Shown here: positions 1-60,845 of the stretch, piece by piece
Layout: each line of letters begins with the position of its first letter
Numbering within the stretch: position 1 is the first letter of the stretch
Source of the DNA: Octopus vulgaris
Lineage: Eukaryota
Direction of reading: 5' to 3'
NCBI GenBank assembly: GCA_951406725.2
Contig: OX597814.1
Location: 223,696,001-223,760,000 of the forward strand
DNA: 64,000 bases
Notes under the pieces: generated by a model
What the model saw: the letters and a program-made list of their open reading frames with translations, nothing else
What the model was told of the DNA's origin: nothing
Databases searched by the model: none
Program-made: the position numbers and the translations under genes

Positions 1-232
1 GGGTACCAAACAGCAACCAGACCGTTGCAAATTTGCTCCCCCGAGAAATAAATTTTATAGTTGGCAGGTAGTCCCCCAACTCTTTCTCTATAGTATTCTT
101 GTCGAAGAGGGCAATGGCTCCACGCGACCTAGAATAGGTTCGTAGGACCACCGTCCTCTTCTCAAGACTTTCAATCCACTGCTTTGGTGGGACGACCTCC
201 CATTCCAAAGCGGTGGTTTCTTTTGTTGCCAT
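1..232 (-). CDS. L1/Tx1-type ORF1 (RRM-like + CCHC knuckle), N-terminal part, unit 0
   Basis: ATG at 232-230 (MATKETT...). This copy has 5 C at 38-42, which keeps the frame through ISRGSKFATVWLLFG. Runs off the window edge. Confidence 0.75.
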   Translation of the reverse strand, partial: MATKETTALEWEVVPPKQWIESLEKRTVVLRTYSRSRGAIALFDKNTIEKELGDYLPTIKFISRGSKFATVWLLFGT

Positions 233-982
233 GTTTTTTTTTTTGTTTTTTTTAAATAAATGTATTTAGAATAAAACTAAAAAACGAGAAGAAAAGGAAA
301 TCCGAAGAATGTCACAATGAAAAACGGAGAGAGTCAAATAAAGTTGAAAAGAAAGTCAAATAAAGTTAAAAAGAAAGTCAAAAACACAGCAAAATCCTTT
401 TGGCCATTTGGTACTCCCGGCCTAAATCGAACCAGGATCGCACAACTTCCACAAAAATTGGTGTAAAATTGGTAGTTCTTCACAGCACCATACAATTTTC
501 ACAATTCGAAGACGGATACGCCCCCCAAAATTTTCTCAGCGAGAAAATATATCTGCCACATGTCGGCAGAATCAGAATTCTGAATCCAGTAGGACTTCCT
601 GCATGTAAAAAATAATTCTCAACAAAAACTCCCACTGGACCCAGAAAACAGAATCTTACCTTACATGGGGCTTCCAAAGTTTCAATTCAAGACGGCTTCA
701 AAAGCACATCTTCACTGCTTCAGTAGCAAACACAACACTGACTCGCACATGCGCAGTTAGCAAGCTACTTTATTTTAAATAATTTGCCACTAGGGCAGCA
801 CACAGAGTAGTAGCTACGGGCTGGACAAGGACATTAATGGATGATGGTGGTGGTTGATGAAGATGGTGATGGGAGAAGTCGAAAGCGCCCGCCGACTTTT
901 GCTTCTCTAAAACAATGTTTCAATAAATACATTTAATAAACAATGATTCAAATTGCATAAAAATGTTCAACAATTCTTCTCG

Positions 983-2227
983 TCAGGTCCCCGAAGCAAA
1001 TTGTCTTGCCGCCTGCAGACAACTCTGCGACGACAAGTCGGGGCCTGCAAAGAGAAGGTAAAGTCTTTCTTTTCAAAGGTCTCTGCGACCCTTGACAAAG
1101 TATCTTCTGTTACTTTCTCCGCAGCTACCTGCGGAGGCCATAACGGACTCCTTGAGCCGACCGTGTCCTTACGCTCTCGGTCACCCAAGCCAGTCAAGAA
1201 TCTTTCAACCTTCTCTCCCTTGTGGTAAAGGAGGAGAAGCATCTCCTCTTCACAGGGAGGGACCTCACACTCCTCCGTCGGTGGCACACTTCCCACTGGC
1301 GGAGCCTTGTCCGCGGGTGGCACACATCCCACCCGCGGCTCCGTCGGCGACACAGAAACGTCAGTCGTCCGACCTCTCCTTTTCTCCTCCTTCTTTTGGG
1401 GGAGACTGCTGACCCAGGGGACTCCGTCACCAGACACGGGGGATTGCTATCCCCCTTCGCCCCCTGAGCGTTCTTTGGCGGGCAACCATTGTTGCTCGCC
1501 TTTCTCTTTCTTTTCGTGGAGGCAACCTCCTCCACGACTTCCATCGTCTCCCCCTCCAATGAGGGGGCGGCGGGCGCCTTTTCCCCTCTCTGCTCCGGGG
1601 CACCACTACGGCCCCTGGGACAATTCTTCCTGATATGTCCGGGCTTCAGGCACAGGTGACACTTGGGGGGGCGACCCTCGAGTATCACCGGGTACCTGTG
1701 CCCAGCCATTCTCAGGAAGTCCGGGAATTTCATTTGCCCCACGGCTACCGGTGTCCACAGGGTCAAGGTTGCCCTCGACCCCTGCCAGGCGACCGCGGGA
1801 GCCACCTTCACACTTAGCAGTCTGGGTCCGCTATCCCCCAGGCCTCGCCGGATGGTCTTTTCGATCCATTCCGCCTCCGTGCCCGGGGGCAGCCCACACA
1901 CCCAGGCTCTTTTCACTTTTCTGCCACAATACGAGGGGAGGAACAAAATTTCCTCTCCCTCCAGTGGCTCGCTAGCAAATCTGCTAGCTTCCTCGGGGGT
2001 ACCAAACAGCAACCAGACCGTTGCAAATTTGCTCCCCGAGAAATAAATTTTATAGTTGGCAGGTAGTCCCCCAACTCTTTCTCTATAGTATTCTTGTCGA
2101 AGAGGGCAATGGCTCCACGCGACCTAGAATAGGTTCGTAGGACCACCGTCCTCTTCTCAAGACTTTCAATCCACTGCTTTGGTGGGACGACCTCCCATTC
2201 CAAAGCGGTGGTTTCTTTTGTTGACAT
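983..2227 (-). CDS. L1/Tx1-type ORF1 gag-like protein, unit 1 (split by homopolymer indels)
   Basis: ORF pieces 1913..2227, 1194..2012 and 967..1437 join into one protein with motif ILEGRPPK-CHLCLKPGHIRKNC (CX2CX4HX4C) and VCGLPPGTEAEWIEKTI (RRM-like). Start variant MSTKETT. Confidence 0.8.
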
Positions 2228-2984
2228 AAGTTTTTTTTTTGTTTTTTTTTTTTTTAAATAAATGTATTTAGAATAAAACTAAAAAACGAGAAGAAAAGGG
2301 AAATCCGAAGAATGTCACAATGAAAAACGGAGAGAGTCAAATAAAGTTGAAAAGAAAGTCAAATAAAGTTAAAAAGAAAGTCAAAAACACAGCAAAATCC
2401 TTTTGGCCATTTGGTACTCCCGGCCTAAATCGAACCAGGATCGCACAGCTTCCACAAAAATTGGTGTAAAATTGGTAGTTCTTCACAGCACCATACAATT
2501 TTCACAATTCGAAGACGGATACGCCCCCAAAATTTTCTCAGCGAGAAAATATATCTGCCACATGTCGGCAGAATCAGAATTCTGAATCCAGTAGGACTTC
2601 CTGCATGTAAAAATTAATTCTCAACAAAAACTCCCACTGGACCCAGAAAACAGAATCTTACCTTACATGGGGCTTCCAAAGTTTCAATTCAAGACGGCTT
2701 CAAAAGCACATCTTCACTGCTTCAGTAGCAAACACAACACTGACTCGCACATGCGCAGTTAGCAAGCTACTTTATTTTAAATAATTTGCCACTAGGGCAG
2801 CACACAGAGTAGTAGCTACGGGCTGGACAAGGACATTAATGGATGATGGTGGTGGTTGATGAAGATGGTGATGGGAGAAGTCGAAAGCGCCCGCCGACTT
2901 TTGCTTCTCTAAAACAATGTTTCAATAAATACATTTAATAAACAATGATTCAAATTGCATAAAAATGTTCAACAATTCTTCTCG

Positions 2985-4231
2985 TCAGGTCCCCGAAGCA
3001 AATTGTCTTGCCGCCTGCAGACAACTCTGCGACGACAAGTCGGGGCCTGCAAAGAGAAAGGTAAAGTCTTTCTTTTCAAAGGTCTCTGCGACCCTTGACA
3101 AAGTATCTTCTGTTACTTTCTCCGCAGCTACCTGCGGAGGCCATAACGGACTCCTTGAGCCGACCGTGTCCTTACGCTCTCGGTCACCCAAGCCAGTCAA
3201 GAATCTTTCAACCTTCTCTCCCTTGTGGTAAAGGAGGAGAAGCATCTCCTCTTCACAGGGAGGGACCTCACACTCCTCCGTCGGTGGCACACTTCCCACT
3301 GGCGGAGCCTTGTCCGCGGGTGGCACACATCCCACCCGCGGCTCCGTCGGCGACACAGAAACGTCAGTCGTCCGACCTCTCCTTTTTCTCCTCCTTCTTT
3401 TGGGGGAGACTGCTGACCCAGGGGACTCCGTCACCAGACACGGGGGATTGCTATCCCCCTTCGCCCCCTGAGCGTTCTTTGGCGGGCAACCATTGTTGCT
3501 CGCCTTTCTCTTTCTTTTCGTGGAGGCAACCTCCTCCACGACTTCCATCGTCTCCCCCTCCAATGAGGGGGCGGCGGGCGCCTTTTCCCCCTCTTTGCTC
3601 CGGGGCACCACTACGGCCCCTGGGACAATTCTTCCTGATATGTCCGGGCTTCAGGCACAGGTGACACTTGGGGGGGCGACCCTCGAGTATCACCGGGTAC
3701 CTGTGCCCAGCCATTCTCAGGAAGTCCGGGAATTTCATTTCCCCACGGCTATCGGTGTCCACAGGGTCAAGGTTGCCCTCGACCCCTGCCAGGCGACCGC
3801 AGGAGCCACCTTCACACTTAGCAGTCTGGGTCCGCTATCCCCCAGGCCTCGCCGGATGGTCTTTTCGATCCATTCCGCCTCCGTGCCCGGGGGCAGCCCA
3901 CACACCCAGGCTCTTTTCACTTTTCTGCCACAATACGAGGGGAGGAACAAAATTTCCTCTCCCTCCAGTGGCTCGCTAGCAAATCTGCTAGCTTCCTCGG
4001 GGGTACCAAATAGCAACCAGACCGTTGCAAATTTGCTCCCCGAGAAATAAATTTTATAGTTGGCAGGTAGTCCCCCAACTCTTTCTCTATAGTATTCTTG
4101 TCGAAGAGGGCAATGGCTCCACGCGACCTAGAATAGGTTCGTAGGACCACCGTCCTCTTCTCAAGACTTTCAATCCACTGCTTTGGTGGGACGACCTCCC
4201 ATTCCAAAGCGGTGGTTTCTTTTGTTGCCAT
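2985..4231 (-). CDS. L1/Tx1-type ORF1, unit 2 (frameshifted)
   Basis: Same protein in four ORF pieces; indels fall in C/G runs; stop at 2985-2987. Confidence 0.8.
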
Positions 4232-4983
4232 GTTTTTTTTTGTTTTTTTTTTTTTAAATAAATGTATTTAGAATAAAACTAAAAAACGAGAAGAAAAGGA
4301 AATCCGAAGAATGTCACAATGAAAAACGGAGAGAGTCAAATAAAGTTGAAAAGAAAGTCAAATAAAGTTAAAAAGAAAGTCAAAAACACAGCAAAATCCT
4401 TTTGGCCATTTGGTACTCCCGGCCTAAATCGAACCAGGATCGCACAGCTTCCACAAAAATTGGTGTAAAATTGGTAGTTCTTCACAGCACCATACAATTT
4501 TCACAATTCGAAGACGGATACGCCCCCAAAATTTTCTCAGCGAGAAAATATATCTGCCACATGTCGGCAGAATCAGAATTCTGAATCCAGTAGGACTTCC
4601 TGCATGTAAAAATTAATTCTCAACAAAAACTCCCACTGGACCCAGAAAACAGAATCTTACCTTACATGGGGCTTCCAAAGTTTCAATTCAAGACGGCTTC
4701 AAAAGCACATCTTCACTGCTTCAGTAGCAAACACAACACTGACTCGCACATGCGCAGTTAGCAAGCTACTTTATTTTAAATAATTTGCCACTAGGGCAGC
4801 ACACAGAGTAGTAGCTACGGGCTGGACAAGGACATTAATGGATGATGGTGGTGGTTGATGAAGATGGTGATGGGAGAAGTCGAAAGCGCCCGCCGACTTT
4901 TGCTTCTCTAAAACAATGTTTCAATAAATACATTTAATAAACAATGATTCAAATTGCATAAAAATGTTCAACAATTCTTCTCG

Positions 4984-6231
4984 TCAGGTCCCCGAAGCAA
5001 ATTGTCTTGCCGCCTGCAGACAACTCTGCGACGACAAGTCGGGGCCTGCAAAGAGAAAGGTAAAGTCTTTCTTTTCAAAGGTCTCTGCGACCCTTGACAA
5101 AGTATCTTTCTGTTACTTTCTCCGCAGCTACCTGCGGAGGCCATAACGGACTCCTTGAGCCGACCGTGTCCTTACGCTCTCGGTCACCCAAGCCAGTCAA
5201 GAATCTTTCAACCTTCTCTCCCTTGTGGTAAAGGAGGAGAAGCATCTCCTCTTCACAGGGAGGGACCTCACACTCCTCCGTCGGTGGCACACTTCCCACT
5301 GGCGGAGCCTTGTCCGCGGGTGGCACACATCCCACCCGCGGCTCCGTCGGCGACACAGAAACGTCAGTCGTCCGACCTCTCCTTTTTCTCCTCCTTCTTT
5401 TGGGGGAGACTGCTGACCCAGGGGACTCCGTCACCAGACACGGGGGATTGCTATCCCCCTTCGCCCCCTGAGCGTTCTTTGGCGGGCAACCATTGTTGCT
5501 CGCCTTTCTCTTTCTTTTCGTGGAGGCAACCTCCTCCACGACTTCCATCGTCTCCCCCTCCAATGAGGGGGCGGCGGGCGCCTTTTCCCCTCTTTGCTCC
5601 GGGGCACCACTACGGCCCCTGGGACAATTCTTCCTGATATGTCCGGGCTTCAGGCACAGGTGACACTTGGGGGGGCGACCCTCGAGTATCACCGGGTACC
5701 TGTGCCCAGCCATTCTCAGGAAGTCCGGGAATTTCATTTCCCCCACGGCTATCGGTGTCCACAGGGTCACGGTTGCCCTCGACCCCTGCCAGGCGACCGC
5801 AGGAGCCACCTTCACACTTAGCAGTCTGGGTCCGCTATCCCCCAGGCCTCGCCGGATGGTCTTTTCGATCCATTCCGCCTCCGTGCCCGGGGGCAGCCCA
5901 CACACCCAGGCTCTTTTCACTTTTCTGCCACAATACGAGGGGAGGAACAAAATTTCCTCTCCCTCCAGTGGCTCGCTAGCAAATCTGCTAGCTTCCTCGG
6001 GGGTACCAAATAGCAACCAGACCGTTGCAAATTTGCTCCCCGAGAAATAAATTTTATAGTTGGCAGGTAGTCCCCCAACTCTTTCTCTATAGTATTCTTG
6101 TCGAAGAGGGCAATGGCTCCACGCGACCTAGAATAGGTTCGTAGGACCACCGTCCTCTTCTCAAGACTTTCAATCCACTGCTTTGGTGGGACGACCTCCC
6201 ATTCCAAAGCGGTGGTTTCTTTTGTTGCCAT
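4984..6231 (-). CDS. L1/Tx1-type ORF1, unit 3 (frameshifted)
   Basis: Longest open piece 5075..6016 (313 aa) includes the zinc knuckle and basic KRRRRKRR tract. Total span 1248 nt = 415 aa + stop after correcting one -1 and one +1 indel. Confidence 0.8.
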
Positions 6232-6984
6232 GTTTTTTTTTTTTTTTTTTTTTTTAAATAAATGTATTTAGAATAAAACTAAAAAACGAGAAGAAAAGGA
6301 AATCCGAAGAATGTCACAATGAAAAACGGAGAGAGTCAAATAAAGTTGAAAAGAAAGTCAAATAAAGTTAAAAAGAAAGTCAAAAACACAGCAAAATCCT
6401 TTTGGCCATTTGGTACTCCCGGCCTAAATCGAACCAGGATCGCACAGCTTCCACAAAAATTGGTGTAAAATTGGTAGTTCTTCACAGCACCATACAATTT
6501 TCACAATTCGAAGACGGATACGCCCCCCAAAATTTTCTCAGCGAGAAAATATATCTGCCACATGTCGGCAGAATCAGAATTCTGAATCCAGTAGGACTTC
6601 CTGCATGTAAAAATTAATTCTCAACAAAAACTCCCACTGGACCCAGAAAACAGAATCTTACCTTACATGGGGCTTCCAAAGTTTCAATTCAAGACGGCTT
6701 CAAAAGCACATCTTCACTGCTTCAGTAGCAAACACAACACTGACTCGCACATGCGCAGTTAGCAAGCTACTTTATTTTAAATAATTTGCCACTAGGGCAG
6801 TACACAGAGTAGTAGCTACGGGCTGGACAAGGACATTAATGGATGATGGTGGTGGTTGATGAAGATGGTGATGGGAGAAGTCGAAAGCGCCCGCCGACTT
6901 TTGCTTCTCTAAAACAATGTTTCAATAAATACATTTAATAAACAATGATTCAAATTGCATAAAAATGTTCAATAATTCTTCTCG

Positions 6985-8229
6985 TCAGGTCCCCGAAGCA
7001 AATTGTCTTGCCGCCTGCAGACAACTCTGCGACGACAAGTCGGGGCCTGCAAAGAGAAAGGTAAAGTCTTTCTTTTCAAAGGTCTCTGCGACCCTTGACA
7101 AAGTATCTTCTGTTACTTTCTCCGCAGCTACCTGCGGAGGCCATAACGGACTCCTTGAGCCGACCGTGTCCTTACGCTCTCGGTCACCCAAGCCAGTCAA
7201 GAATCTTTCAACCTTCTCTCCCTTGTGGTAAAGGAGGAGAAGCATCTCCTCTTCACAGGGAGGGACCTCACACTCCTCCGTCGGTGGCACACTTCCCACT
7301 GGCGGAGCCTTGTCCGCGGGTGGCACACATCCCACCCGCGGCTCCGTCGGCGACACAGAAACGTCAGTCGTCCGACCTCTCCTTTTTCTCCTCCTTCTTT
7401 TGGGGGAGACTGCTGACCCAGGGGACTCCGTCACCAGACACGGGGGATTGCTATCCCCCTTCGCCCCCTGAGCGTTCTTTGGCGGGCAACCATTGTTGCT
7501 CGCCTTTCTCTTCTTTTCGTGGAGGCAACCTCCTCCACGACTTCCATCGTCTCCCCCTCCAATGAGGGGGCGGCGGGCGCCTTTTCCCCTCTCTGCTCCG
7601 GGGCACCACTACGGCCCCTGGGACAATTCTTCCTGATATGTCCGGGCTTCAGGCACAGGTGACACTTGGGGGGGCGACCCTCGAGTATCACCGGGTACCT
7701 GTGCCCAGCCATTCTCAGGAAGTCCGGGAATTTCATTTGCCCCACGGCTACCGGTGTCCACAGGGTCAAGGTTGCCCTCGACCCCTGCCAGGCGACCGCG
7801 GGAGCCACCTTCACACTTAGCAGTCTGGGTCCGCTATCCCCCAGGCCTCGCCGGATGGTCTTTTCGATCCATTCCGCCTCCGTGCCCGGGGCAGCCCACA
7901 CACCCAGGCTCTTTTCACTTTTCTGCCACAATACGAGGGGAGGAACAAAATTTCCTCTCCCTCCAGTGGCTCGCTAGCAAATCTGCTAGCTTCCTCGGGG
8001 GTACCAAACAGCAACCAGACCGTTGCAAATTTGCTCCCCGAGAAATAAATTTTATAGTTGGCAGGTAGTCCCCCAACTCTTTCTCTATAGTATTCTTGTC
8101 GAAGAGGGCAATGGCTCCACGCGACCTAGAATAGGTTCGTAGGACCACCGTCCTCTTCTCAAGACTTTCAATCCACTGCTTTGGTGGGACGACCTCCCAT
8201 TCCAAAGCGGTGGTTTCTTTTGTTGCCAT
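6985..8229 (-). CDS. L1/Tx1-type ORF1, unit 4 (frameshifted)
   Basis: ORF pieces 7915..8229, 7817..8014, 7431..7931 and 6985..7434. Confidence 0.8.
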
Positions 8230-8980
8230 GTTTTTTTTTGTTTTTTTTTAAATAAATGTATTTAGAATAAAACTAAAAAACGAGAAGAAAAGGAAATCCG
8301 AAGAATGTCACAATGAAAAACGGAGAGAGTCAAATAAAGTTGAAAAGAAAGTCAAATAAAGTTAAAAAGAAAGTCAAAAACACAGCAAAATCCTTTTGGC
8401 CATTTGGTACTCCCGGCCTAAATCGAACCAGGATCGCACAACTTCCACATAAATTGGTGTAAAATTGGTAGTTCTTCACAGCACCATACAATTTTCACAA
8501 TTCGAAGACGGATACGCCCCCCCAAAATTTTCTCAGCGAGAAAAATATATCTGCCACATGTCGGCAGAATCAGAATTCTGAATCCAGTAGGACTTCCTGC
8601 ATGTAAAAAATAATTCTCAACAAAAACTCCCACTGGACACAGAAAACAGAATCTTACCTTACATGGGGCTTCCAAAGTTTCAATTCAAGACGGCTTCAAA
8701 AGCACATCTTCACTGCTTCAGTAGCAAACACAACACTGACTCGCACATGCGCAGTTAGCAAGCTACTTTATTTTAAATAATTTGCCACTAGGGCAGTACA
8801 CAGAGTAGTAGCTACGGGCTGGACAAGGACATTAATGGATGATGGTGGTGGTTGATGAAGATGGTGATGGGAGAAGTCGAAAGCGCCCGCCGACTTTTGC
8901 TTCTCTAAAACAATGTTTCAATAAATACATTTAATAAACAATGATTCAAATTGCATAAAAATGTTCAACAATTCTTCTCG

Positions 8981-10225
8981 TCAGGTCCCCGAAGCAAATT
9001 GTCTTGCCGCCTGCAGACAACTCTGCGACGACAAGTCGGGGCCTGCAAAGAGAAAGGTAAAGTCTTTCTTTTCAAAGGTCTCTGCGACCCTTGACAAAGT
9101 ATCTTCTGTTACTTTCTCCGCAGCTACCTGCGGAGGCCATAACGGACTCCTTGAGCCGACCGTGTCCTTACGCTCTCGGTCACCCAAGCCAGTCAAGAAT
9201 CTTTCAACCTTCTCTCCCTTGTGGTAAAGGAGGAGAAGCATCTCCTCTTCACAGGGAGGGACCTCACACTCCTCCGTCGGTGGCACACTTCCCACTGGCG
9301 GAGCCTTGTCCGCGGGTGGCACACATCCCACCCGCGGCTCCGTCGGCGACACAGAAACGTCAGTCGTCCGACCTCTTCTTTTCTCCTCCTTCTTTTGGGG
9401 GAGACTGCTGACCCAGGGGACTCTGTCACCAGACACGGGGGATTGCTATCCCCCTTCGCCCCCTGAGCGTTCTTTGGCGGGCAACCATTGTTGCTCGCCT
9501 TTCTCTTTCTTTTCGTGGAGGCAACCTCCTCCACGACTTCCATCGTCTCCCCCTCCAATGAGGGGGCGGCGGGCGCCTTTTCCCCTATCTGCTCCGGGGC
9601 ACCACTACGGCCCCTGGGACAATTCTTCCTGATATGTCCGGGCTTCAGGCACAGGTGACACTTGGGGGGGCGACCCTCGAGTATCACCGGGTACCTGTGC
9701 CCAGCCATTCTCAGGAAGTCCGGGAATTTCATTTGCCCCACGGCTACCGGTGTCCACAGGGTCAAGGTTGCCCTCGACCCCTGCCAGGCGACCGCGGGAG
9801 CCACCTTCACACTTAGCAGTCTGGGTCCGCTATCCCCCAGGCCTCGCCGGATGGTCTTTTCGATCCATTCCGCCTCCGTGCCCGGGGGCAGCCCACACAC
9901 CCAGGCTCTTTTCACTTTTCTGCCACAATACGAGGGGAGGAACAAAATTTCCTCTCCCTCCAGTGGCTCGCTAGCAAATCTGCTAGCTTCCTCGGGGTAC
10001 CAAATAGCAACCAGACCGTTGCAAATTTGCTCCCCGAGAAATAAATTTTATAGTTGGCAGGTAGTCCCCCAACTCTTTCTCTATAGTATTCTTGTCGAAG
10101 AGGGCAATGGCTCCACGCGACCTAGAATAGGTTCGTAGGACCACCGTCCTCTTCTCAAGACTTTCAATCCACTGCTTTGGTGGGACGACCTCCCATTCCA
10201 AAGCGGTGGTTTCTTTTGTTGCCAT
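8981..10225 (-). CDS. L1/Tx1-type ORF1, unit 5 (frameshifted)
   Basis: ORF pieces 9983..10225, 9193..9945 and 8981..9436. Confidence 0.8.
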
Positions 10226-10973
10226 GTTTTTTTTGTTTTTTTTTAAATAAATGTATTTAGAATAAAACTAAAAAACGAGAAGAAAAGGAAATCCGAAGAA
10301 TGTCACAATGAAAAACGGAGAGAGTCAAATAAAGTTGAAAAGAAAGTCAAATAAAGTTAAAAAGAAAGTCAAAAACACAGCAAAATCCTTTTGGCCATTT
10401 GGTACTCCCGGCCTAAATCGAACCAGGGTCGCACAACTTCCACATAAATTGGTGTAAAATTGGTAGTTCTTCACAGCACCATACAATTTTCACAATTCGA
10501 AGACGGATACGCCCCCCAAATTTTCTCAGCGAGAAAAATATATCTGCCACATGTCGGCAGAATCAGAATTCTGAATCCAGTAGGACTTCCTGCATGTAAA
10601 AAATAATTCTCAACAAAAACTCCCACTGGACACAGAAAACAGAATCTTACCTTACATGGGGCTTCCAAAGTTTCAATTCAAGACGGCTTCAAAAGCACAT
10701 CTTCACTGCTTCAGTAGCAAACACAACACTGACTCGCACATGCGCAGTTAGCAAGCTACTTTATTTTAAATAATTTGCCACTAGGGCAGTACACAGAGTA
10801 GTAGCTACGGGCTGGACAAGGACATTAATGGATGATGGTGGTGGTTGATGAAGATGGTGATGGGAGAAGTCGAAAGCGCCCGCCGACTTTTGCTTCTCTA
10901 AAACAATGTTTCAATAAATACATTTAATAAACAATGATTCAAATTGCATAAAAATGTTCAACAATTCTTCTCG

Positions 10974-12219
10974 TCAGGTCCCCGAAGCAAATTGTCTTGC
11001 CGCCTGCAGACAACTCTGCGACGACAAGTCGGGGCCTGCAAAGAGAAAGGTAAAGTCTTTCTTTTCAAAGGTCTCTGCGACCCTTGACAAAGTATCTTCT
11101 GTTACTTTCTCCGCAGCTACCTGCGGAGGCCATAACGGACTCCTTGAGCCGACCGTGTCCTTACGCTCTCGGTCACCCAAGCCAGTCAAGAATCTTTCAA
11201 CCTTCTCTCCCTTGTGGTAAAGGAGGAGAAGCATCTCCTCTTCACAGGGAGGGACCTCACACTCCTCCGTCGGTGGCACACTTCCCACTGGCGGAGCCTT
11301 GTCCGCGGGTGGCACACATCCCACCCGCGGCTCCGTCGGCGACACAGAAACGTCAGTCGTCCGACCTCTTCTTTTCTCCTCCTTCTTTTGGGGGAGACTG
11401 CTGACCCAGGGGACTCTGTCACCAGACACGGGGGATTGCTATCCCCCTTCGCCCCCTGAGCGTTCTTTGGCGGGCAACCATTGTTGCTCGCCTTTCTCTT
11501 TCTTTTCGTGGAGGCAACCTCCTCCACGACTTCCATCGTCTCCCCCTCCAATGAGGGGGCGGCGGGCGCCTTTTCCCCTATCTGCTCCGGGGCACCACTA
11601 CGGCCCCTGGGACAATTCTTCCTGATATGTCCGGGCTTCAGGCACAGGTGACACTTGGGGGGGCGACCCTCGAGTATCACCGGGTACCTGTGCCCAGCCA
11701 TTCTCAGGAAGTCCGGGAATTTCATTTGCCCCACGGCTACCGGTGTCCACAGGGTCAAGGTTGCCCTCGACCCCTGCCAGGCGACCGCGGGAGCCACCTT
11801 CACACTTAGCAGTCTGGGTCCGCTATCCCCCAGGCCTCGCCGGATGGTCTTTTCGATCCATTCCGCCTCCGTGCCCGGGGGCAGCCCACACACCCAGGCT
11901 CTTTTCACTTTTCTGCCACAATACGAGGGGAGGAACAAAATTTCCTCTCCCTCCAGTGGCTCGCTAGCAAATCTGCTAGCTTCCTCGGGGGTACCAAATA
12001 GCAACCAGACCGTTGCAAATTTGCTCCCCGAGAAATAAATTTTATAGTTGGCAGGTAGTCCCCCAACTCTTTCTCTATAGTATTCTTGTCGAAGAGGGCA
12101 ATGGCTCCACGCGACCTAGAATAGGTTCGTAGGACCACCGTCCTCTTCTCAAGACTTTCAATCCACTGCTTTGGTGGGACGACCTCCCATTCCAAAGCGG
12201 TGGTTTCTTTTGTTGCCAT
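10974..12219 (-). CDS. L1/Tx1-type ORF1, unit 6 (frameshifted)
   Basis: ORF pieces 11905..12219, 11186..12004 and 10974..11429. Confidence 0.8.
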
Positions 12220-12741
12220 GTTTTTTTTTGTTTTTTTTTAAATAAATGTATTTAGAATAAAACTAAAAAACGAGAAGAAAAGGAAATCCGAAGAATGTCA
12301 CAATGAAAAACGGAGAGAGTCAAATAAAGTTGAAAAGAAAGTCAAATAAAGTTAAAAAGAAAGTCAAAAACACAGCAAAATCCTTTTGGCCATTTGGTAC
12401 TCCCGGCCTAAATCGAACCAGGGTCGCACAACTTCCACATAAATTGGTGTAAAATTGGTAGTTCTTCACAGCACCATACAATTTTCACAATTCGAAGACG
12501 GATACGCCCCCCAAATTTTCTCAGCGAGAAAAATATATCTGCCACATGTCGGCAGAATCAGAATTCTGAATCCAGTAGGACTTCCTGCATGTAAAAAATA
12601 ATTCTCAACAAAAACTCCCACTGGACACAGAAAACAGAATCTTACCTTACATGGGGCTTCCAAAGTTTCAATTCAAGACGGCTTCAAAAGCACATCTTCA
12701 CTGCTTCAGTAGCAAACACAACACTGACTCGCACATGCGCA

Positions 12742-12776
12742 GTTAGCAAGCTACTTACCACACAGCCACTCCTGCG
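12742..12776 (-). mobile_element. 5' head (A-box part) of tRNA-derived SINE family A, interrupted by the array
   Basis: Reverse complement cgcaggagtggctgtgtggtaagtagcttgctaac is identical to the start of the full SINE at 52134-52168. Confidence 0.92.
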
Positions 12777-15039
12777 TATGTGTGTGTGTTTTGTTTTGCT
12801 TTTGTTTTTGTTTTTTTGATGGGGACCGTTGACTTAACATTTTAAAGGCTAATGTTGATGAAATTAGTCGATAATATATCGTCAGAATACCCGCCAAACA
12901 GTCAGCACCACTAAGACTCTGAGCCGTGTATTTAATGACAAGTAAGACAGAACCATTGATAGTTAACTTTTTGTCAATTGTTCAGGTTCTACCCTTTTGT
13001 GATGGATCTATTTAGTTGGGGTGATAAGGTTCACCAGCAAAAGTAATTGATATGCTTACTTGGTGATTCATAAGAATAAGAGCAATGCCCATGACTTTCG
13101 CATCCTTTCCCAAATTAGAAATATACGGCTATCTGTTCTGAACGTTAACAGACCAATATCAGCAGATGAAAGGGAATTATAAAGGAATTGAGAATCTGGT
13201 AGGGAAAGCCCCAGAGAAAACTCTACTAAAAAGTACCCCCCAAATTAGTTGCTAGTGTTAAATTGTATGACATTCAACGGGAGATAATTTCACAAAACGA
13301 GGCTAAAGTTCCGTACACTAAGAGGTGTTTGATCCGTATCTTAAACTAATGGTTAAGGCAGGGATCAAAACATTGGCCTTGCATGTAGTTCAGAGAAGGT
13401 AGAATCTATCCATTCAGTTTTTCGCAGGACAAATACTTTCTCTGCTGGCGAAAAATATGCTTGTTTATCACTATATGTTTAAGGTACTTATAATTTTAGC
13501 TATGGAATTATTGCTCACTATAACCAGTATATACATATCATGATTGATCAACAGTGCTATCATACTTCTTTATGCTATTGATTGTTGTTTACAGTAATCT
13601 TTATATTTATTTTTTCTAAAGAATTTGTTTGTTTTCTTCTCTTCATCCGCTTTCTTTCAAATATGCTTGAATTTGCTCTGAGACAACATTTCTTTCAAAA
13701 CATACCAAACCGTTTTAAAAACAACGGACACTTTGGATAATGTAGTCTTAGATAAACTAAATAAGATTACTCGAACGTATTTGATTTTATAATTACTCGA
13801 TCAGAACTGGTCTAGTGTTAAACAACAGCAAAGAAATCTTAGGTGCCTCTACCCAATAAAACTTATATAATTTGGAATATAGGGAACACATATCTAGTTA
13901 AGGAAGATTTAATTCCATTCCTGTTCAAACAGCTTTACTGCTGTTTTATTAACAAACGTGATCTTAACTAACTGTTTAAGATTATAGGAAAGAGTATGTT
14001 GTGACGTTCATTATTCGGAGCGACAAAATAATTAAAATGTGTTCAACGTTGTTTATTGGTCGTAGTTATCTGACCGCATACCAATAGCTCACGCCAGGCT
14101 AGACTTATGTTTGTGTGTGTGTGTGCGTGCGTGTGTGTGTGTGTGTGTGTGTGTGTACCAATTTCTTAGAAGTTATCACATGGGCATAATTTATTCCAAA
14201 GCGGTCAATGTCATTCTACTGAATGAGAGCAAAATGAGTGAATATATTCATGGTTTTGAATATGAAAAGCCAGCTAGTGGAACTGAAGACATCTTCAAGA
14301 AAAGCCATAAAAATTCTGCATGTATAGAAGAATGAGTTATTCTGCTTAGATTACTCTATTTCCAAAGAATCTTCTAAGCAAAAGAACCGGTGAAAGAATA
14401 GATTGAAATATCGAATACAATCCTGACAATTCCACAGCTTTTAAGTCAATATTAACACACTCCGGAAGGCATCTTAATATTCAAATGCGTATTCTTCTAT
14501 AATATACATATATTTCCTGTTCAAATACTTTTATTCTGTCTAAATACCTTATATAGCTCAAATATATGAAACCAAGAAAAAGTAATTAATATAAGTAATA
14601 TGATTAAGTTTTCTCTTTTTTTCTTTTATTATATATTAAAGTTGTCTAACCTCTTTAGAAATCACGAATGACATTGTGATGAAAAGGTTATGTGAAAAGA
14701 TAAGACGAGATAAGTCATACATATTTGTAATTAGTTATCATAATGATTTCCTGTTGAGGAGATCGAAGGAAGCGTCAAAGTGGAGTTAGTTTCCAATTGA
14801 ATGCATCGTGTAGCAGCAGGAAAAGTAATATGAAATGTGCTTTTATTTGTAGTTTTTTTTTTCAATTACACATTGGAACCATTTGATATTAATCTCAGTT
14901 TTTTTTTTATTTTGTTACGTAAAAAGTTATGAGAATTTAATAAAAAAAAAGGCGAAACATTTAATTTCACTTTTCTCCGACGCTAATATATACACACACA
15001 CTTATAAGCACACATGCACTGATGTGTACACGTCATTAT

Positions 15040-16156: not shown

Positions 16157-17035
16157 CAGGAAGTTCGCACTAAATTTGACGGATTTTTATGTCTTCTTTC
16201 TTCAAGAACAATTTGATGTATTGGTGGACAGTCAATGGAGTTGGTGAGCATAAAGATTAAAGTTGTAGTTGAGAAAAAATTAGCAGACATGGAGGCCTGG
16301 AAGCGATCTGAAGATTAGAAAAGAGTTACTTGTATCATGATGATTCTCGCCGGGTATTAAAATGCCGATATCATAACAACTGCTCAGTGCTCTGTAAACA
16401 CTGTAAAGTCTGTAAGACGTAACAAAGGCAGCTGCAACGGAGACTACGAAGCCGTAACAAGCAGGAAACGACACAGCAGGCATTCTGACTGCGTGCGCAC
16501 GCCAGGGTCCATCCAGCAACAGGGCCTTAGGCTCAGTTTAGATGTCTGCTAAAGACTGTGATCAATCCATGGCTGAAGGAGGTTACTGCTGCAAGGCCAC
16601 ATATGTGACGGCAATATTCGGCTCCTTGACATACGTCCAGAAGGTGTCAGAAGCGGTTATCGGAAATTTTTCTACGACTTCACCGAATTTCTGACCTCCT
16701 AATTCCTCCAATTCTAATCGCATGGATTTCTATGCATGAGGCGCGGTTGAAAAAGATACAAACCGCTCTGTATGCAACACCAAGGCCGAGCTGGTGACCA
16801 AGATCAAGGAGGTGTTTGAAGATTTCCCCAGTGTCACAGGGCAGAACGCATGCGCTAGGTCCAGGAGCAAATTTGAGGGCCGCAGTGGAAGCTGAGGGCC
16901 GTTTCTTTCAGTAAACTTTTATCTCCCAATCATAATTTCGTTGATTTTTATTGTTTAAACATACTTTTACTTTTGGATGACACATAGTGTTTACTTTCTT
17001 TTGTATAAACTGTCAAATTTAGACCGAATACCCTG
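16157..17035 (+). mobile_element. Decayed Tc1/mariner (DD37D/maT-like) DNA transposon
   Basis: Imperfect TIRs caggaagttcgcactaaatttgac / gtcaaatttagaccgaataccctg, both flanked by TA. Internal remnants resemble QQDSAPxH (~16610) and WPPNSPDLNPMD (~16690). Confidence 0.8.
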
Positions 17036-17129
17036 TATAATAGGATCATATAGTCACATACACAATATACTCATGAGGGTATACTACTACATATGTGTCT
17101 ATATGTGCATATGTGTATAACGTGAAGAG

Positions 17130-17490
17130 GTCACTGTTGGTCTACGACGGCAAGATTTGAGTTATGTAAATCGATAAAACGTGTTCAGTGAACTTGCCGC
17201 GAGGTGTGCAAAATCCAACGTTTCGGACAATGTCTTTCTTCAGAGAACATTTGGGGGAAGAGAAATAAATGAGGGCCTGAAAAGTTTTCCATACTCTAAA
17301 TAAAACGACGAGCTGCAGTTGATAAAGAACATAGGACAACGTGAGAGTCATACGTGAACAAGAAGTAGTAGGAGAAACAATGCGAAAGAAGAAGGAGTGA
17401 GAAATGGGATGATAAGAAGCATGTAAAATTGAGAGTGAGGTGAAGGGAAAATATGAAGGGAGAGTGGAGTTAAAAAAATAGAAATACCTT
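17130..17490 (-). mobile_element. Penelope-like terminal-repeat remnant with degenerate hammerhead motif
   Basis: Pyrimidine-rich tract followed by ctgaaga-aagacattgtcc-gaaacgtt on the minus strand (17213-17248). Confidence 0.4.
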
Positions 17491-17502
17491 AATGAACTAA
17501 GA

Positions 17503-19236
17503 GGGCGTATCCGTCTTCGAATTGTGAAAATTGTATGGTGCTGTGAAGAACTACCAATTTTACACCAATTTTTGTGGAAGTTGTGCGATCCTGGTTCGAT
17601 TTAGGCCGGGAGTACCAAATGGCCAAAAGGATTTTGCTGTGTTTTTGACTTTCTTTTTAACTTTATTTGACTTTCTTTTCAACTTTATTTGACTCTCTCC
17701 TTTTTTCATTGTGACTTTCTTCGGATTTCCTTTTCTTCTCGTTTTTTAGTTTTATTCTAAATACATTTATTTAAAAAAAAAAAAAAAAACATGGCAACAA
17801 AAGAAACCACCGCTATGGAATGGGAGGTCGTCCCACCCAAGCAGTGGATTGAAAGTCTTGAGAAGAGGACGGTGGTCCTACGAACCTATTCTAGGTCGCG
17901 TGGAGCCATTGCCCTCTTCGACAGGAATACTATAGAGAAAGAGTTGGGGGAATACCTGCCAACTATAAAATTTATTTCTCGGGGGACTAAATTTGCAATG
18001 GTGTGGTTGCTGTTTGGTACCCCCGAGGAAGCTAGCAGATTTGCTAGCGAGCCACTGGAGGGAGAGGAAATTTTGTTCCTCCCCTCGTATTGTGGCAGAA
18101 AAGTGAAAAGAGCCTGGGTGTGTGGGCTGCCCCCGGGCACGGAGGCGGAATGGATCGAGAAGACCATCCGGCGAGGCCTGGGGGATAGAGGACCCAGACT
18201 GCTGAGTGTGAAGGTGGCTCCCGCGGTCGCCTGGCAGGGGTCGAGGGCAACTTTGACCCTGTGGACACCGGTAGCCGTGGGAGAAATGAAATTCCCGGAC
18301 TTCCTGAGAATGGCTGGGCACAGGTACCCGGTGATACTCGAGGGTCGCCCCCCCCAAGTGTCACCTGTGCCTGAAGCCCGGACATATCAGGAAGAATTGT
18401 CCCAGGGGCCGTGGTGGTGCCCCGGAGCAGAGAGGGGAAAAGGCGCCCGCCGCCCCCTCATTGGAGGGGGAGACGATGGAAGTCGTGGAGGAGGTTGCCT
18501 CCACGAAAAGAAAGAGAAAGGCGAGCAACAATGGTTGCCCGCCAAAGAACGCTCAGGGGGCGAAGGGGGATAGCAATCCCCCGTGTCTGGTGACGGAGTC
18601 CCCTGGGTCACCAGTCTCCCCAAAAGGAGGAGAAAAAGGAGAGGTCGGACGACTGACGTTTCTGTGTCGCCGACGGAGCCGCGGGTGGGATGTGTGCCAC
18701 CCGCGGACAAGGCTCCGCCAGTAGGAAGTGTGCCACCGACGGAGCAGTGTGAGGTCCCTCCCTGTGAAGAGGAGATGCTTCTCCTCGTTTACCACAAGGG
18801 AGAGGAGGTTGAAAGATTCTTGAATGGCTTGGGTGACCGAGAGCGTAAGGGCACGGTCGGCTCAAGGAGTCCGTCATGGCCTCCGCGGGTAGCTGCGGAA
18901 AAAGTAACAGAAGATACTTTGTCATGGGTCGCAGAGACCTTTGAAAAGAAAGACTTTACCTTTCTCTTTGCAGGCCCCGACTTGTCGTCGCAGAGTTGTC
19001 TGCAGGCGGCAAGACAATTTGCTTCGGGGACCTGACGAGAAGAATTGTTGAACAATTTTTGAACATTTTATTAAATGTATTTATTGAAACATTGTTTTAG
19101 AGAAGCGAAAGTCGGCGGGCGCTTTCGACTTCTCCCATCACCATCTTCATCCACCACCACCATCATCCATTAATGTCCTTGTCCAGCCCGTAGCTACTAC
19201 TCTGTGTGCTGCCCTAGTGGCAAATTATATAAAATA
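17503..19236 (+). mobile_element. Solitary, inverted, 5'-truncated copy of the array element
   Basis: Collinear with the reverse complement of an array unit, lacking ~245 bp of the 5' end. Ends ...ggcaaattatataaaataaa followed by the SINE motif variant aagtagcttggttacc (19237-19252). Confidence 0.95.
17791..19035 (+). CDS. L1/Tx1-type ORF1, solitary copy (+1 and -1 homopolymer indels, one 3-nt deletion)
   Basis: ORFs 17791..18573, 18461..18724 and 18583..19035. The N-terminal ~190 codons are open (G5 run intact). Confidence 0.8.
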
Positions 19237-19252
19237 AAGTAGCTTGGTTACC

Positions 19253-19912
19253 TAAGTTGCTGACTTCCGTTTAACATACTTCCTGTTTGTGTCTTCAGCT
19301 GTTCAGAAGCGCATTTTTTGTTCTGTGGATTACCTGTTTTCTATGTGGAGTACCTGTCTAAACTGTCTCTTCTATTCAGATTATTATTTGTGAATTTTTT
19401 CTGACGCCTCCCAGAGCGGGAAGGTAAGAAACATTTTTTTGAAAATTTCTGTGCAAAAAAAAACTGAACTTTATTAAGCCGTTGTAGGCTTTTTGTTGCG
19501 CCCCGCCCCCAAGTGGGGAAGGGATTGGAACTACCATCTTTTGTTAGGCTTAGTGGAAGCTATATTACGTTTTTTCTTAACATTTTCTGAACTATTATTA
19601 TAGGCTCCCACTTTTGTGGGGGTAATACATTTGTTTTTTGTTGTGTGAACGAATTATTGTTGAACCGATGTAAAGCTTTACACCGAACCCCACCCCCAGT
19701 GGGGGTAGGACTTGAAACATTATCCTCCCTAGAAGGAAAAACTCTGTCTTGTTTCTGACTTTGTTAATTTCGGCCGTGTATGTTGGTCGAAATTATCAGA
19801 AATGTACCCTCGAAGAGGGAGGTGTCAGTGCTAGCAATGGTGCCACCACTGCTAACAAGTTTGTGGCTGTTTCAGCCGTTGCAAAAGATACAATTAATAT
19901 TCCCCTAGAATA
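19253..19912 (+). mobile_element. Unidentified element 5' region lying at the same SINE target motif (putative sibling family)
   Basis: Starts immediately after the SINE motif. Contains ETS-like acttccg/acttcctg, an AAG|GTAAGA donor-like site (~19423) and four C-run/G-run hairpins. Followed by the SINE 3' half. Confidence 0.5.
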
Positions 19913-19919
19913 CTTATAT

Positions 19920-20146
19920 ATGTATGTGTGTGTGTATATGTTTGTGTCTGTGTTTATCCCCCCAACATCGCTTGACAACCGATGCAGGTGCGTTTACGTC
20001 CCTGTAACTTAGCGGTTCGGCATAAGAGACCTATAGAATAAGTACTAGGCTAACAAAGAATAAGTGTCGGGGTCGAATTGTTCGACTAAAGGTGGTACTC
20101 CAGCATGGCCGCAGTCAAATGACAGAAACAAGTAAAAGTCAAAGAA
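19920..20146 (+). mobile_element. SINE family A, 3' half
   Basis: cgcttgacaaccgatg...cagcatggccgcagtcaaatgacagaaacaagtaaaag matches 52330-52535. Confidence 0.9.
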
Positions 20147-20848
20147 AAACCAACCCCAGGCCTTGCTCACTAACGTGCAGTGTCCCTTACTCTGCCGTCT
20201 CTACTGCTACTTCAGTAGCATCTACTCCTCAGAGATGGTAGACTATGGGCCATTTACTATCAAATTCGAAAAGAGAATTGACTCATCCGTCTCCCCCAAT
20301 GCCGCCTCCTCTCATGCCTCACATTGACCATGAAATCTAATACTTTCCTTTTTAGTCATAACTCATATTTGTCCTGCAACCATCGACATGCTCTAAAACC
20401 GAGCGAACACTAACATTATAATTCTCTCAAGTCACAAGGAAAGGACCTTCCTTCAATTCAAACAACTTAAAGAATAGGTGTGTGTTTTGTGTGTCTATCT
20501 ATCTGTCTGCGTGTGTGTGAAGGTGTGTGCGTGTACATGTGTATGTATGTATGTGTGTGTTTAGTACGTTTATTTATGCATATAACCAATTGGCACACGC
20601 CCAGGCAATTAGAGAGCTAGTCAGATGTACAAATACATATACTTAGCTCAGAGTGTTTGTCACTGACGACACCAGAATCAGATAAAAAAAACACCCCTTG
20701 TTTGATGCTGCTGGTGTTATTCTGAGATTATTGTGTGTTTTTAACACATAAAGACATAAAGTCTCTTAAGTGAAGTTTCTTTGAGAAAAATATTACAGCT
20801 CGCACCGTTCTACGTTTGTATGTACATCTTAAGTGTTATACACATTGT

Positions 20849-51962: not shown

Positions 51963-52131
51963 CAAATATTGATTTTTTTTCTTCACCTCATAATGATTGC
52001 CAGTTTAAATATGTTTGCATCGAACAGGCTAACACTAACTTGAAATTTAATTTTCTGGTGGGTGATGATTCGGAGTTATTAAACATATGGCACATCCTAA
52101 ATATCACAAAAATTCCAATAATTCTAATATA

Positions 52132-52540
52132 GGCGCAGGAGTGGCTGTGTGGTAAGTAGCTTGCTAACCAACCACATGGTTCCGGGTTCAGTCCCACTAC
52201 GTGGCACCTTGGGCAAGTGTCTTCTGCTATAGCCCCGGGCCGACCAATGCCTTGTGAGTGGATTTGGTTGACGGAAACTGAAAGAAGCCTGTCGTATATA
52301 TGTATATGTGTATGTGTGTGTATGTGTTTGTGTGTCTGTGTTTGTCTCCCTAGCATTGCTTGACAACCGATGCTGGTGTGTCTACGTCCCCGTCACTTAG
52401 CGGTTCGGCAAAAGAGACCGATAGAATAAGTACTGGGCTTACAAAGAATAAGTCCCGGGGTCGATTTGCTCGACTAAAAGGTGGTGCTCCAGCATGGCCG
52501 CAGACAAATCACTGAAACAAGTAAAAGAGTAAAAGAGAGA
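52132..52540 (+). mobile_element. SINE family A, full length (uninterrupted copy of the array's target)
   Basis: A-box tggctgtgtgg, B-box ggttcagtccc, internal (TG)n, 3' tail gtaaaagagtaaaagag. Confidence 0.95.
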
Positions 52541-52879
52541 GTATGCGAGAACCGTGTTGTAAAATGTTTGCAAAATATTAACTCGTGACAGAAACCAATG
52601 GTTTTCCCGCAACTGTATCAAGTTCTGTTGCATACTTTTAACTTAATGTATTCATTCCATCAGATTCTCATCTCACTCCTCGTACGGTGTTTGTCTCCAA
52701 AATGTCCAGAAAAATCTTTGAACATATTCCATTTTCTAGTTCTTTCCCCGCATGTAAGGTATTCCTTTCTCATTGCATCCATCCATCCATTTCCACTCCC
52801 CACTATCCCTGAGAAGGGTAGAATCCTCTGGTACCTTCTCTACAGGGTCCTCTCAGAAATAACCGTCATTTTAGTCTCC

Positions 52880-56849: not shown

Positions 56850-58450
56850 CCTATACAGTGAAGGGCTCACCGACAAAGACTAGGACTATATGACCAATTT
56901 CAAAACTAAAACCAGCCAATTTTACGGTATTCCCAAGATACACAAAAGTGAGAAAATAAGTAACGCATGCAAGATAGTCACAGACATAATAATCAAAGTC
57001 CCTACTCCTAATGACCTATAATAGCAGGTCCCGTATGCGAAACCCACCGCCTCAGTAACTTTTTAGATACCCTCTTAAAACCACTCCTCAAACATGTCAA
57101 AAGCTATATAAGGGACGACCTGGATATGCTCAATCACTTGCCTAAAACAATAAACAAAAACACCCTACTAGTATCCTTCGATGTAGTCAACCTCTATTCC
57201 AATATCCCCCACAACCTAAGAATAGAGGCAATTCAATTCTGGCTAGAGAATTACGCCAACGAACTGCCACATCGCAGAAAAAAAAGAATTCGTGACAGAA
57301 GGGCTACAATTCATCTTGGAGAATAACTACTTCGTTTACAAAGACTTCTATCGACAAAAATCAGAGACTGCGATGGGTACGAGAATGGCCCCCTTCTTTG
57401 CTAACCTAGTCATGGGATGTCTAGAAATTAGTCCTTATCGTAAGGTTCTAGAAACATACGGCAGTCCATTCTCCCTCTCTTTACTCTTTTTACTCTTTTA
57501 CTTGTTTCAGTCATTTGACTGCGGCCATGCTGGAGCACCGCCTTTAGTCGAGCAAATCGACCCCAGTACTTATTCTTTGTAAACCTAGTACTTATTCTAT
57601 CGGTCACTTTTATCGAACCGCTAAGTTACGGAGACGTAAATACACCAGCATCGGTTGTCAAGCGATGTTGGGGGACAAACACAGACACAAACATACACAC
57701 ACACATACATATATATAGACATATATACGACGGGCTTCTTTTAGTTTCCGTCTACCAAAACCATTCACAAGGCTTTGGTCGGCCCCAGGCTATAGTAGAA
57801 GACACTTGCCCAAAGTGCCACGCAGTGGGACGGAATCCGGAACCATGTGGTTGGTAAGCAAGCTACTTACCACACAGCCACTCCTACGCCTAGATAGAAA
57901 ATAACTGGAAGAAATAACTGGTTGACTGTTTCATTCTTTGGCATAAAAGTATAGAGAGACTTAAAAATTTCAAGCACTTTTGGCAAGAGACAGCCCAAAT
58001 CTATGAAAAGTCTTCTAACACAAGCCCGAATACGCTCAAGAACAACACTGAAGCCGTCAGTAAAAAAATGCGGAAGACCCAACTGTGTGATATGTGTCAA
58101 TTTAATTGAGGGATCCGGGTTCTCCTTGAAACAGGGACAACGTTTCACAGAGAAAAGCAGCTTTACATGTGCTTCGGACCTGATATACGCACTAACATGC
58201 TCTGGGTTTCAAGAGCAATACATAGGCCAAACAAAACCCAGTCTACGTTAAAGGATGGCTCTGCACAGATCCCAGATCAAAATTTAAAAAAAAAAAAACA
58301 GAAAAAAATATCATTCAGCCAAAACATCAACATTTGCGCCAATAACAAAAATCCAAGCTTCAGAATTTTTCCCCTCTATCAATTCAGGGACGATACAACC
58401 TGTAGCCAACGAATTGGTAAAGAGTCTCTTTATTATAAAATACAGACCCA
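56850..58450 (+). pseudogene. Penelope-like element RT + GIY-YIG endonuclease, decayed and interrupted by a SINE
   Basis: FYGIPKIHK; LLVSFDVVNLYSNIPH; FYRQKSETAMGTRMAPFFANLVM; then CGRPNCVIC and FTCASDLIYALTC...YIGQT. Confidence 0.88.
57476..57890 (-). mobile_element. SINE family A, full length, inserted into the Penelope ORF
   Basis: Reverse complement ggcgtaggagtggctgtgtggtaagtagcttgcttaccaaccac...gtaaaagag. Confidence 0.95.
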
Positions 58451-60477: not shown

Positions 60478-60845
60478 TATGGCTGTGCGATAAGTAGCTT
60501 GCTTACCAACCTCATGGTCCTGGGTTCAGTCCCACTGCGTGACACCTTGGGCAAGTGTCTTCTACTATAACCTCGGGCCGACCAAAACTTTGTGAGTGGA
60601 TGTGGTAGACGGAAACTAGAAGAAGCCCGTCGTATATATGTATATATATATATGTATGTGTGTGTATATGTTTGTCTGTCTGCGTTTGTCCCTTAACATT
60701 GCTTGACAACCGATGCTGGTGTGATTGCGTCCCCGTAACTTAGCGGTTCGGCAAAAGACACCGATTGAATAAGTACTAAGCCTACAGAGACTAAGATCTG
60801 GGGTCAATTTGCTCGACTAAAGGCGGCGCTCCAGCATGGCCGCAC
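60478..60845 (+). mobile_element. SINE family A
   Basis: tggctgtgcgataagtagcttgcttaccaacc...ccagcatggccgca. Confidence 0.9.

Follow-up and report, generated by a model that had tools for sequence, protein, structure and literature searches.

A lone ORF1-only retroelement at a fixed SINE site in Octopus vulgaris and the probable source of the target motif in front of its relatives

Elements at the locus

We analysed a window of 64,000 nucleotides from Octopus vulgaris (GenBank assembly GCA_951406725.2, contig OX597814.1, positions 223,696,001 to 223,760,000 of the forward strand; window positions count from its first base). It holds an array of retroelement units of one family (family A), a lone copy of the same family, and SINEs of the type that these elements target (Table 1).

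Table 1. Features of the window, in order of position.
Feature	Position	Strand	Remarks
Family-A array	1..12741	-	head-to-tail units of ~2 kb, extending past base 1
5' motif of the array	12742..12756	-	GCTAAC allele
SINE head remnant	12757..12779	-	precedes the array
Old dispersed repeat	17135..17504	.	~70% identity to many copies; broken mid-element at the left junction, GG overlap
Lone family-A copy	17503..19236	+	ORF1-only non-LTR retroelement lacking its first 232 bases; no poly(A)
ORF1 of the lone copy	17791..19035	+	frame broken by small indels, some within homopolymer runs
3' terminus common to all families	19210..19236	+	TGCC-N5-GGCA inverted repeat, then AAA...AAATA
Target motif AAGTAGCTTGGTTACC	19237..19252	+	SINE bases 29-44; at this locus it forms the left junction of an older family-D insertion
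Family-D 5' UTR	19253..19914	+	ends ~30 bases short of its ORF1; 82-88% identity to two other loci
Host SINE, 3' half	19915..20149	+	same orientation as the lone copy
Intact SINE	52127..52545	+	TAAC allele, empty target
Intact SINE	57484..57899	-	TTAC allele, empty target
SINE	60480..60844	+	TTAC allele, worn head

In its form the lone copy agrees with a first-pass annotation made from the letters of the window. It lies on the plus strand, opposite to the array units; it begins at unit position 233; it is more diverged (96.4-96.8% BLAST identity to the units, against 98.8-99.9% from unit to unit); and its 3' UTR is altered by an 11-bp gap as well as by substitutions. The motif behind it, AAGTAGCTTGGTTACC, is one mismatch from the TTAC SINE allele (60492 on the plus strand, 57868 on the minus strand), and the SINE head is absent from its 5' side, both as annotated. 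The family-A ORF1 has 415 amino acids in intact copies and shares 30% identity with the ORF1 of the autonomous partner described below. A CCHC zinc knuckle lies at 18359-18400 of the lone copy, and no Pfam domain was found in two pieces of its ORF1. A frameshift in a G run of ORF1 is scattered over the family-A tree and may be a homopolymer error.

Past base 1 of the window the array goes on with a seventh A unit and a 5.4-kb autonomous element of family C, and then comes a SINE body (L183). The GCTAAC allele is present, as the annotation had it, at all six internal junctions of the array in the window and at the junction with the SINE head. The SINE body at the array's far end reads GTTAACC, so the GCTAAC at the array head, which had been taken for the host's allele, says nothing about the host SINE. 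In the SINE head we noted by eye motifs that resemble A and B boxes; ARAGORN found no tRNA in the SINE copy at 52127. Elsewhere, SINE head fragments of 180 bp form a tandem row (L039:2722-3617).

The 662 bases that follow the motif of the lone copy belong to family D rather than to the SINE body, and they match the genome at only two other loci, both directly behind a SINE head, where they lead into the family-D ORF1, which shares 53% identity with the ORF1 of the autonomous partner. Family D is old, with three known copies that are 12-18% diverged. The lone copy landed on the left junction of this older insertion inside a SINE. The earlier proposal of a SINE target holds in that the insertion lies within a SINE locus, and fails in that the motif is the left junction of family D, not a fresh SINE site. 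The original order at the locus would have been head, A, motif, D, motif, SINE body, with two pieces lost since.

The missing 5' end had been read as a sign of target-primed reverse transcription (TPRT). At this locus, however, the head is gone, the flanking repeat stops in mid-element and overlaps the copy by two bases, and on the right there is a second deletion. The remainder of the flanking repeat was sought in the window between 15.5 and 23 kb and was not found there. Among truncated family-C copies the SINE head is kept in six of nine and absent in three. Given the loss of the head, the cut through the old repeat and the retention of heads at most truncated C copies, deletion is the simpler account: the 5' loss was probably a deletion, and it offers no evidence of TPRT here. 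Further to the left, at ~16400-17040, lies a repeat shared with L124 (70% identity) that terminates in CCCTGTATA and that we presume to be a Tc1/mariner remnant.

Target specificity and the autonomous partner

In the genome (2.8 Gb, 227 contigs), the motif follows all of the best 30 matches to the last 137 bases of the lone copy, and since the query excluded the motif this adjacency is not due to chance. Exact 3' ends number 58 for family A, 217 for B and 108 for C. Behind 57 of the 58 A-type ends lies AAGTAGCT, and behind the remaining one AAGTAG only. Together with the 5.4-kb partner C, which abuts the same motif, this bears out the target specificity suggested from the window. Perfect empty SINE heads carrying the two common alleles number 27,434 and 24,932. 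Rare 3' junctions lie off target (L242, L222, L241, L237), that of L242 at an AAGTAGC look-alike, apparently on the opposite strand of the SINE.

Family C encodes an ORF1 of 467 amino acids and an ORF2 of 1133 amino acids with Exo_endo_phos, RVT_1 and zf-RVT domains. Among solved structures, its ORF2 is closest to human L1 ORF2p (E = 3e-62), with R2 at 7e-20. The zf-CCHC match in its ORF1 scores 20.7 bits, just below the cut-off of 20.8, and a CCHC pattern is present in the ORF1 of A, B and C alike. Tx1-clade elements typically have a zinc-knuckle ORF1 and lack a poly(A) tail. Other traits of that clade found here are an APE endonuclease, a reverse transcriptase, a C-terminal zinc motif and sequence-specific insertion into a multicopy target. 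Partner C is assigned to the L1/Tx1 group, with membership of the L1 group based on similarity and a tentative placement in Tx1. The system is not R2, having an APE-type enzyme and a SINE target instead of a restriction-like endonuclease and 28S, yet it resembles R2 at the 5'-junction step. No ribozyme family, and hence no HDV-like ribozyme, was among the 40 Rfam matches listed with E up to 1; a pattern search, run without a control, gave three loose matches.

Several further ORF1-only families, among them B, E, F and G, use the same SINE site; every family has the shared short inverted repeat and AAATA at its 3' end and lacks poly(A). Family A is HAL1-like, with an ORF1, no ORF2 and a 3' end in common with an autonomous LINE, and it likely borrows the endonuclease and reverse transcriptase of partner C in trans, as the shared target and tail suggest. 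The families are mosaics, with 5' UTR, ORF1 and 3' end swapped among A, B, F and G (L046, L047, L048, L164, L167, L190). AGCTACT-like words antisense to the target motif occur in 3' UTRs, at window positions 19190-19201 and in the tails of B and C (9/9 bases in C); with at most two mismatches, the antisense 9-mer is present in 194/200 tails against 97/200 control windows, although the copies fall into about three families.

Stacking at occupied sites

Families that use one site differ in what lies behind their 3' ends. For family A (n = 58) this is another element in 45 cases (17 A, 28 of other families), SINE body in 12 and neither in 1, and when A-A junctions are left aside occupied sites still account for 28/41. 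By contrast, among the first 100 of the 217 B ends, 97 lead into SINE body and 3 into an element, and among the 96 C ends classed from the first 100 of 108, the counts are 86 SINE, 6 element and 4 neither. Family A thus prefers occupied sites, for which open chromatin at the promoter of the earlier element, pairing of the A RNA and template jumping are candidate causes. We tentatively describe A as a parasite of parasites, which picks a rebuilt head-plus-motif although ~52,000 perfect SINE sites stand empty, these being the kind taken by its helper C and its sister B; we regard this as possible rather than probable. If true, the endonuclease of an APE-type LINE system would not choose the target alone but the cargo RNA would have a say in it, and arrays would be time-ordered stacks of different families that grow at their 5' side, the RNA-borne motif regenerating the site each time.

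Stacks might instead form in one event, in which the reverse transcriptase finishes a B or C RNA and jumps onto an A RNA, so that A rides with its helper. Such jumping would account for the rarity of solo A and for the composition of the elements behind it, 19 of the 28 from other families belonging to the young families B and C; template jumps by the R2 polymerase are reported in an excerpt of PMC2718515. We nevertheless consider it unlikely. At the lone copy, A precedes a member of the old family D, and since the nearest kin of this A copy are only 1.1% apart from it, a young A in front of an old D points to a later, separate insertion rather than a joint one. Private or odd alleles have also been carried from the downstream to the upstream junction (L172, L185/L049, L036, L148), at L172 with one private host allele running through three junctions, and the units within one array belong to different lineages.

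More doubtful still is the idea that A-B and A-C pairs are read-through transcripts that moved together, with A-A arrays produced by local unequal crossover. Both kinds of pair do recur, and two adjacent array units in the window are 99.9% identical. The partners behind A form no clade, however: on the B tree, those that lie behind A are intermingled with solo copies (10 changes against 10.4), the A copies that precede B come from many parts of the A tree, and the paired A and B trees are incongruent for 11 sampled loci. Single-locus clades are also rejected for three arrays (p-AU = 2e-6, 6e-4 and 7e-3), in tests weakened by possible mis-polishing or gene conversion of near-identical units. 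Some local duplication is possible alongside the separate, successive insertions that we prefer.

Source of the motif in front of full-length copies

To trace the source of the upstream motif, we retrieved 80 loci through the 5' junction (40 of the 85 listed for B and 40 of the 68 listed for C), of which 42 were picked for odd alleles and the remainder taken as listed. Another 40 were retrieved through the 3' junction, on the grounds that the host allele was odd or a 5' match was missing. Combined with loci already at hand, these yielded 93 solo full-length insertions, purposely enriched for odd alleles, of which 90 are usable at base 13 of the motif. Where the host carries T at base 13, the upstream motif carries A in 35 of 36 solo loci of families B, C, G and F2. 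One-base indel alleles occur in 37/93 upstream motifs and on no host side, and family F has its own one-base-shorter upstream allele in 6/7 solo loci. The unselected genome lists give the same picture: for family C, T13 is present in 2/68 upstream against 20/72 host motifs listed, and extra-T alleles in 23/68 against 0/72; for family B, extra-T alleles are present in 14/85 upstream motifs against none of the 100 host motifs listed (of 162). Among intact SINE heads such extra-T alleles number 9, against 27,434. The two element-type extra-T alleles are found in intact heads at eight listed sites; these may mark places from which an element has recombined out through its two motifs, or may be due to chance.

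On the B tree, copies with one of the extra-T alleles group together (4 changes against 6.8 when shuffled, 0/500). On the C tree the extra-T alleles are unclustered (6 against 5.7 and 7 against 8.9 changes) and so may arise afresh at each junction, or some of the T's may be untemplated additions. Homopolymer error was considered as their source and rejected, given that they are absent from the host sides and that two of the three indel alleles are not changes of run length.

Truncated copies serve as a control, being unable to carry a 5' motif. Two of them (L144, L153) repeat 15-16 bp of their own host, T13 included, and five others, of seven truncated copies with a head, have only 1-11 duplicated bases. 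At full-length copies some host contribution is visible as well. Of 53 non-consensus hosts, 4 have their allele repeated upstream over 15 bases (L061, L154, L170, L171), and the host allele is likewise retained at one of the two informative solo A loci (L189); at L071 base 7 is that of the host and base 13 that of the element; and the upstream head allele follows the host (9/11 against 29/70, p = 0.02).

Such retained alleles and the true repeats at truncated copies are what a plain target-site duplication would give, both motifs stemming from the host SINE and differing by later mutation. As a general account this is very improbable: it is at odds with the A found upstream at host-T loci, with indel alleles that no host side carries and with an allele specific to family F. 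Plain duplication is contradicted for full-length copies, and holds only for truncated copies and the first bases of the motif. The upstream motif is element-derived at bases 12-16 and of either source at bases 7-11. That its distal 4-7 bases are borne by the element can be said firmly, and the RNA-borne part may be only these 4-7 bases.

For the earlier view that the motif comes from the target and not from the element, the outcome is divided: it stands for the motif behind the element and falls for the motif in front of full-length copies. Agreement between the alleles on the two sides, which the first-pass annotation had put forward as a check, is mostly absent at full-length copies, and the upstream motif of these copies tracks the element, the result it had named as speaking against its view.

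Several further features were observed in the 5' UTRs. Splice-donor-like sites (G/GTAAG or G/GTAGG) lie 60-190 bases into the otherwise dissimilar 5' UTRs of six families, at window position 19424 (plus strand, D), at ~12640-12648 (minus strand, A), and in B, C, F and I at L033, L110, L164 and L197. A joint from splicing of the putative 5' UTR intron was absent from the contigs of four presumed-RNA runs that cover family A; such contigs cannot give a transcript start. TTGCT(T) recurs 5-35 bases after the motif (window 19253-19262, L115, L077 and L040; TTGCTTACC in C) and could be an RNA pairing partner of the motif or what is left of a motif captured earlier. Hairpins between motif and 5' UTR are present in many families, with z-scores of +1.5 to -2.8 under a crude shuffle. 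At the element starts (window 12730-12741, minus strand, and 19263-19280) are words that we take to be NRF1-like (TGCGCATG) and ETS-like (ACTTCC) promoter elements, and these would fit an internal promoter that fires just upstream, within the motif.

Independent origin of the lone copy and a model of insertion

Across the 1.73 kb that can be compared, the lone copy has 19-22 differences to copies on other contigs (L040, L033, L049, L036, L185) and 39-46 to the seven array units, in line with the independent insertion that had been claimed for it. A segmental inversion-duplication of the array, which the array's opposite orientation at a distance of only 4.7 kb might suggest, is next to impossible, since the lone copy differs from the array units about twice as much as it does from the other-contig copies and its flanks and downstream neighbour are unlike those of the array. 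A clade of array and lone copy is rejected (p-AU = 8e-46), although not specifically, the array alone being rejected too.

We regard the lone copy, with good though not full confidence, as an independent insertion at a fixed base of the SINE head, likely made by the enzymes of partner C; the RNA of such elements likely carries a target copy, which becomes most of the apparent duplication in front of full-length copies. The starting points of this reading are the fixed 3' junction, the shared terminus, the intact partner at the same site, the upstream motifs that follow the element, the true duplications at truncated copies and the use of occupied sites by family A. In the model, the bottom strand would be nicked between SINE bases 28 and 29, and C's ORF2 would carry out TPRT in trans. 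Were transcription to start inside the previous motif, the cDNA would end in target-like sequence; after a top-strand cut at most 16 bases downstream of the bottom-strand nick, this end could pair with the top-strand overhang and prime the second strand, mismatches close to the primer end being trimmed. Head and motif would thereby be rebuilt ahead of each new insertion, and arrays would extend at their 5' side through later insertions. At the window locus, A would have entered in front of the old D, and later deletions would have taken the head with the 5' end of A, and most of D. That the element RNA carries target sequence is likely, as far as DNA can tell.

Implications and comparison with known systems

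Of all steps in LINE retrotransposition, the joining of the 5' end is understood least. Targets in rDNA are too uniform to reveal which strand supplies the junction; with two common target alleles, in 27,434 and 24,932 perfect copies, the octopus genome amounts to a natural marking experiment. An apparent target duplication can be borne by the element, which calls for caution where insertions are dated or assigned by such duplications. The use of occupied sites by 78% of A ends against 3-6% of B and C ends, likely with one shared enzyme, is a testable sign of steering by the cargo RNA, and a site-specific APE-type LINE with thousands of dispersed sites offers a model for targeted insertion.

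Every part of the system is known from elsewhere, but in the papers searched we found no match for the way the parts are combined, for a SINE as the target or for stacking that is specific to one family. Within that literature no description of a SINE-targeting octopus element was found. A 2026 annotation of octopus repeats gives 13 recently active L1-Tx1 families, and the words "target", "nested", "site-specific" and "non-autonomous" have no occurrence in its text (PMC13282606); the present families may be named in its supplements or in Repbase.

Non-autonomous LINEs that retain an ORF1 are a named class, which includes HAL1, HeT-A and Ag-Sponge (excerpts of Kojima 2018, PMC5786205). Family A is like them in keeping only ORF1 and a 3' end as in the autonomous partner; relative to the class as excerpted, the octopus differs in having several diverged ORF1-only families at one SINE site, with an A ORF1 at only 30% identity to the partner's. 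Tx1-clade LINEs target other repeats, among them Tx1 in Tx1D, Tx1-Mar with SINEU in Mariner-N4_AMi, Keno, Kibi and Koshi (excerpts of Kojima 2015, PMC4494074). There, too, an APE-type element with two ORFs has a defined insertion point within another repeat, and dependents share the target and occur in tandem. In the octopus, unlike the elements in those excerpts, the target is a SINE head, the dependents encode ORF1, and nearly all copies have one-base specificity.

In the passages of Stage and Eickbush (2009, PMC2718515) on tandem R1 arrays in Drosophila 28S genes, an APE-type element stacks by entering the 14-bp duplication that precedes a copy already in place, much as octopus elements stack in front of theirs, and the ancestral R1 is argued to have carried hardly any target bases, if any, at the 5' end. 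R1 sites in rDNA are few and largely occupied, whereas the octopus has more than 52,000 perfect empty sites and one family stacks all the same. The nearest parallel for the 5' junction is R2 of earwigs, in which, according to the portion of Eickbush et al. (2013, PMC3774820) used here, all 5' junctions have a 22-bp copy of the downstream target with three substitutions, and a model is given in which the cDNA pairs with target DNA and the RNA passes on variants of the junction. In the octopus, too, the motif copy at the 5' junction is unlike the target and goes with the element. R2 as treated there has a restriction-like endonuclease, a 5' end made by a ribozyme and a uniform rDNA target; the octopus system is of APE type, no ribozyme having been found, and its polymorphic target reveals, base by base, which source won.
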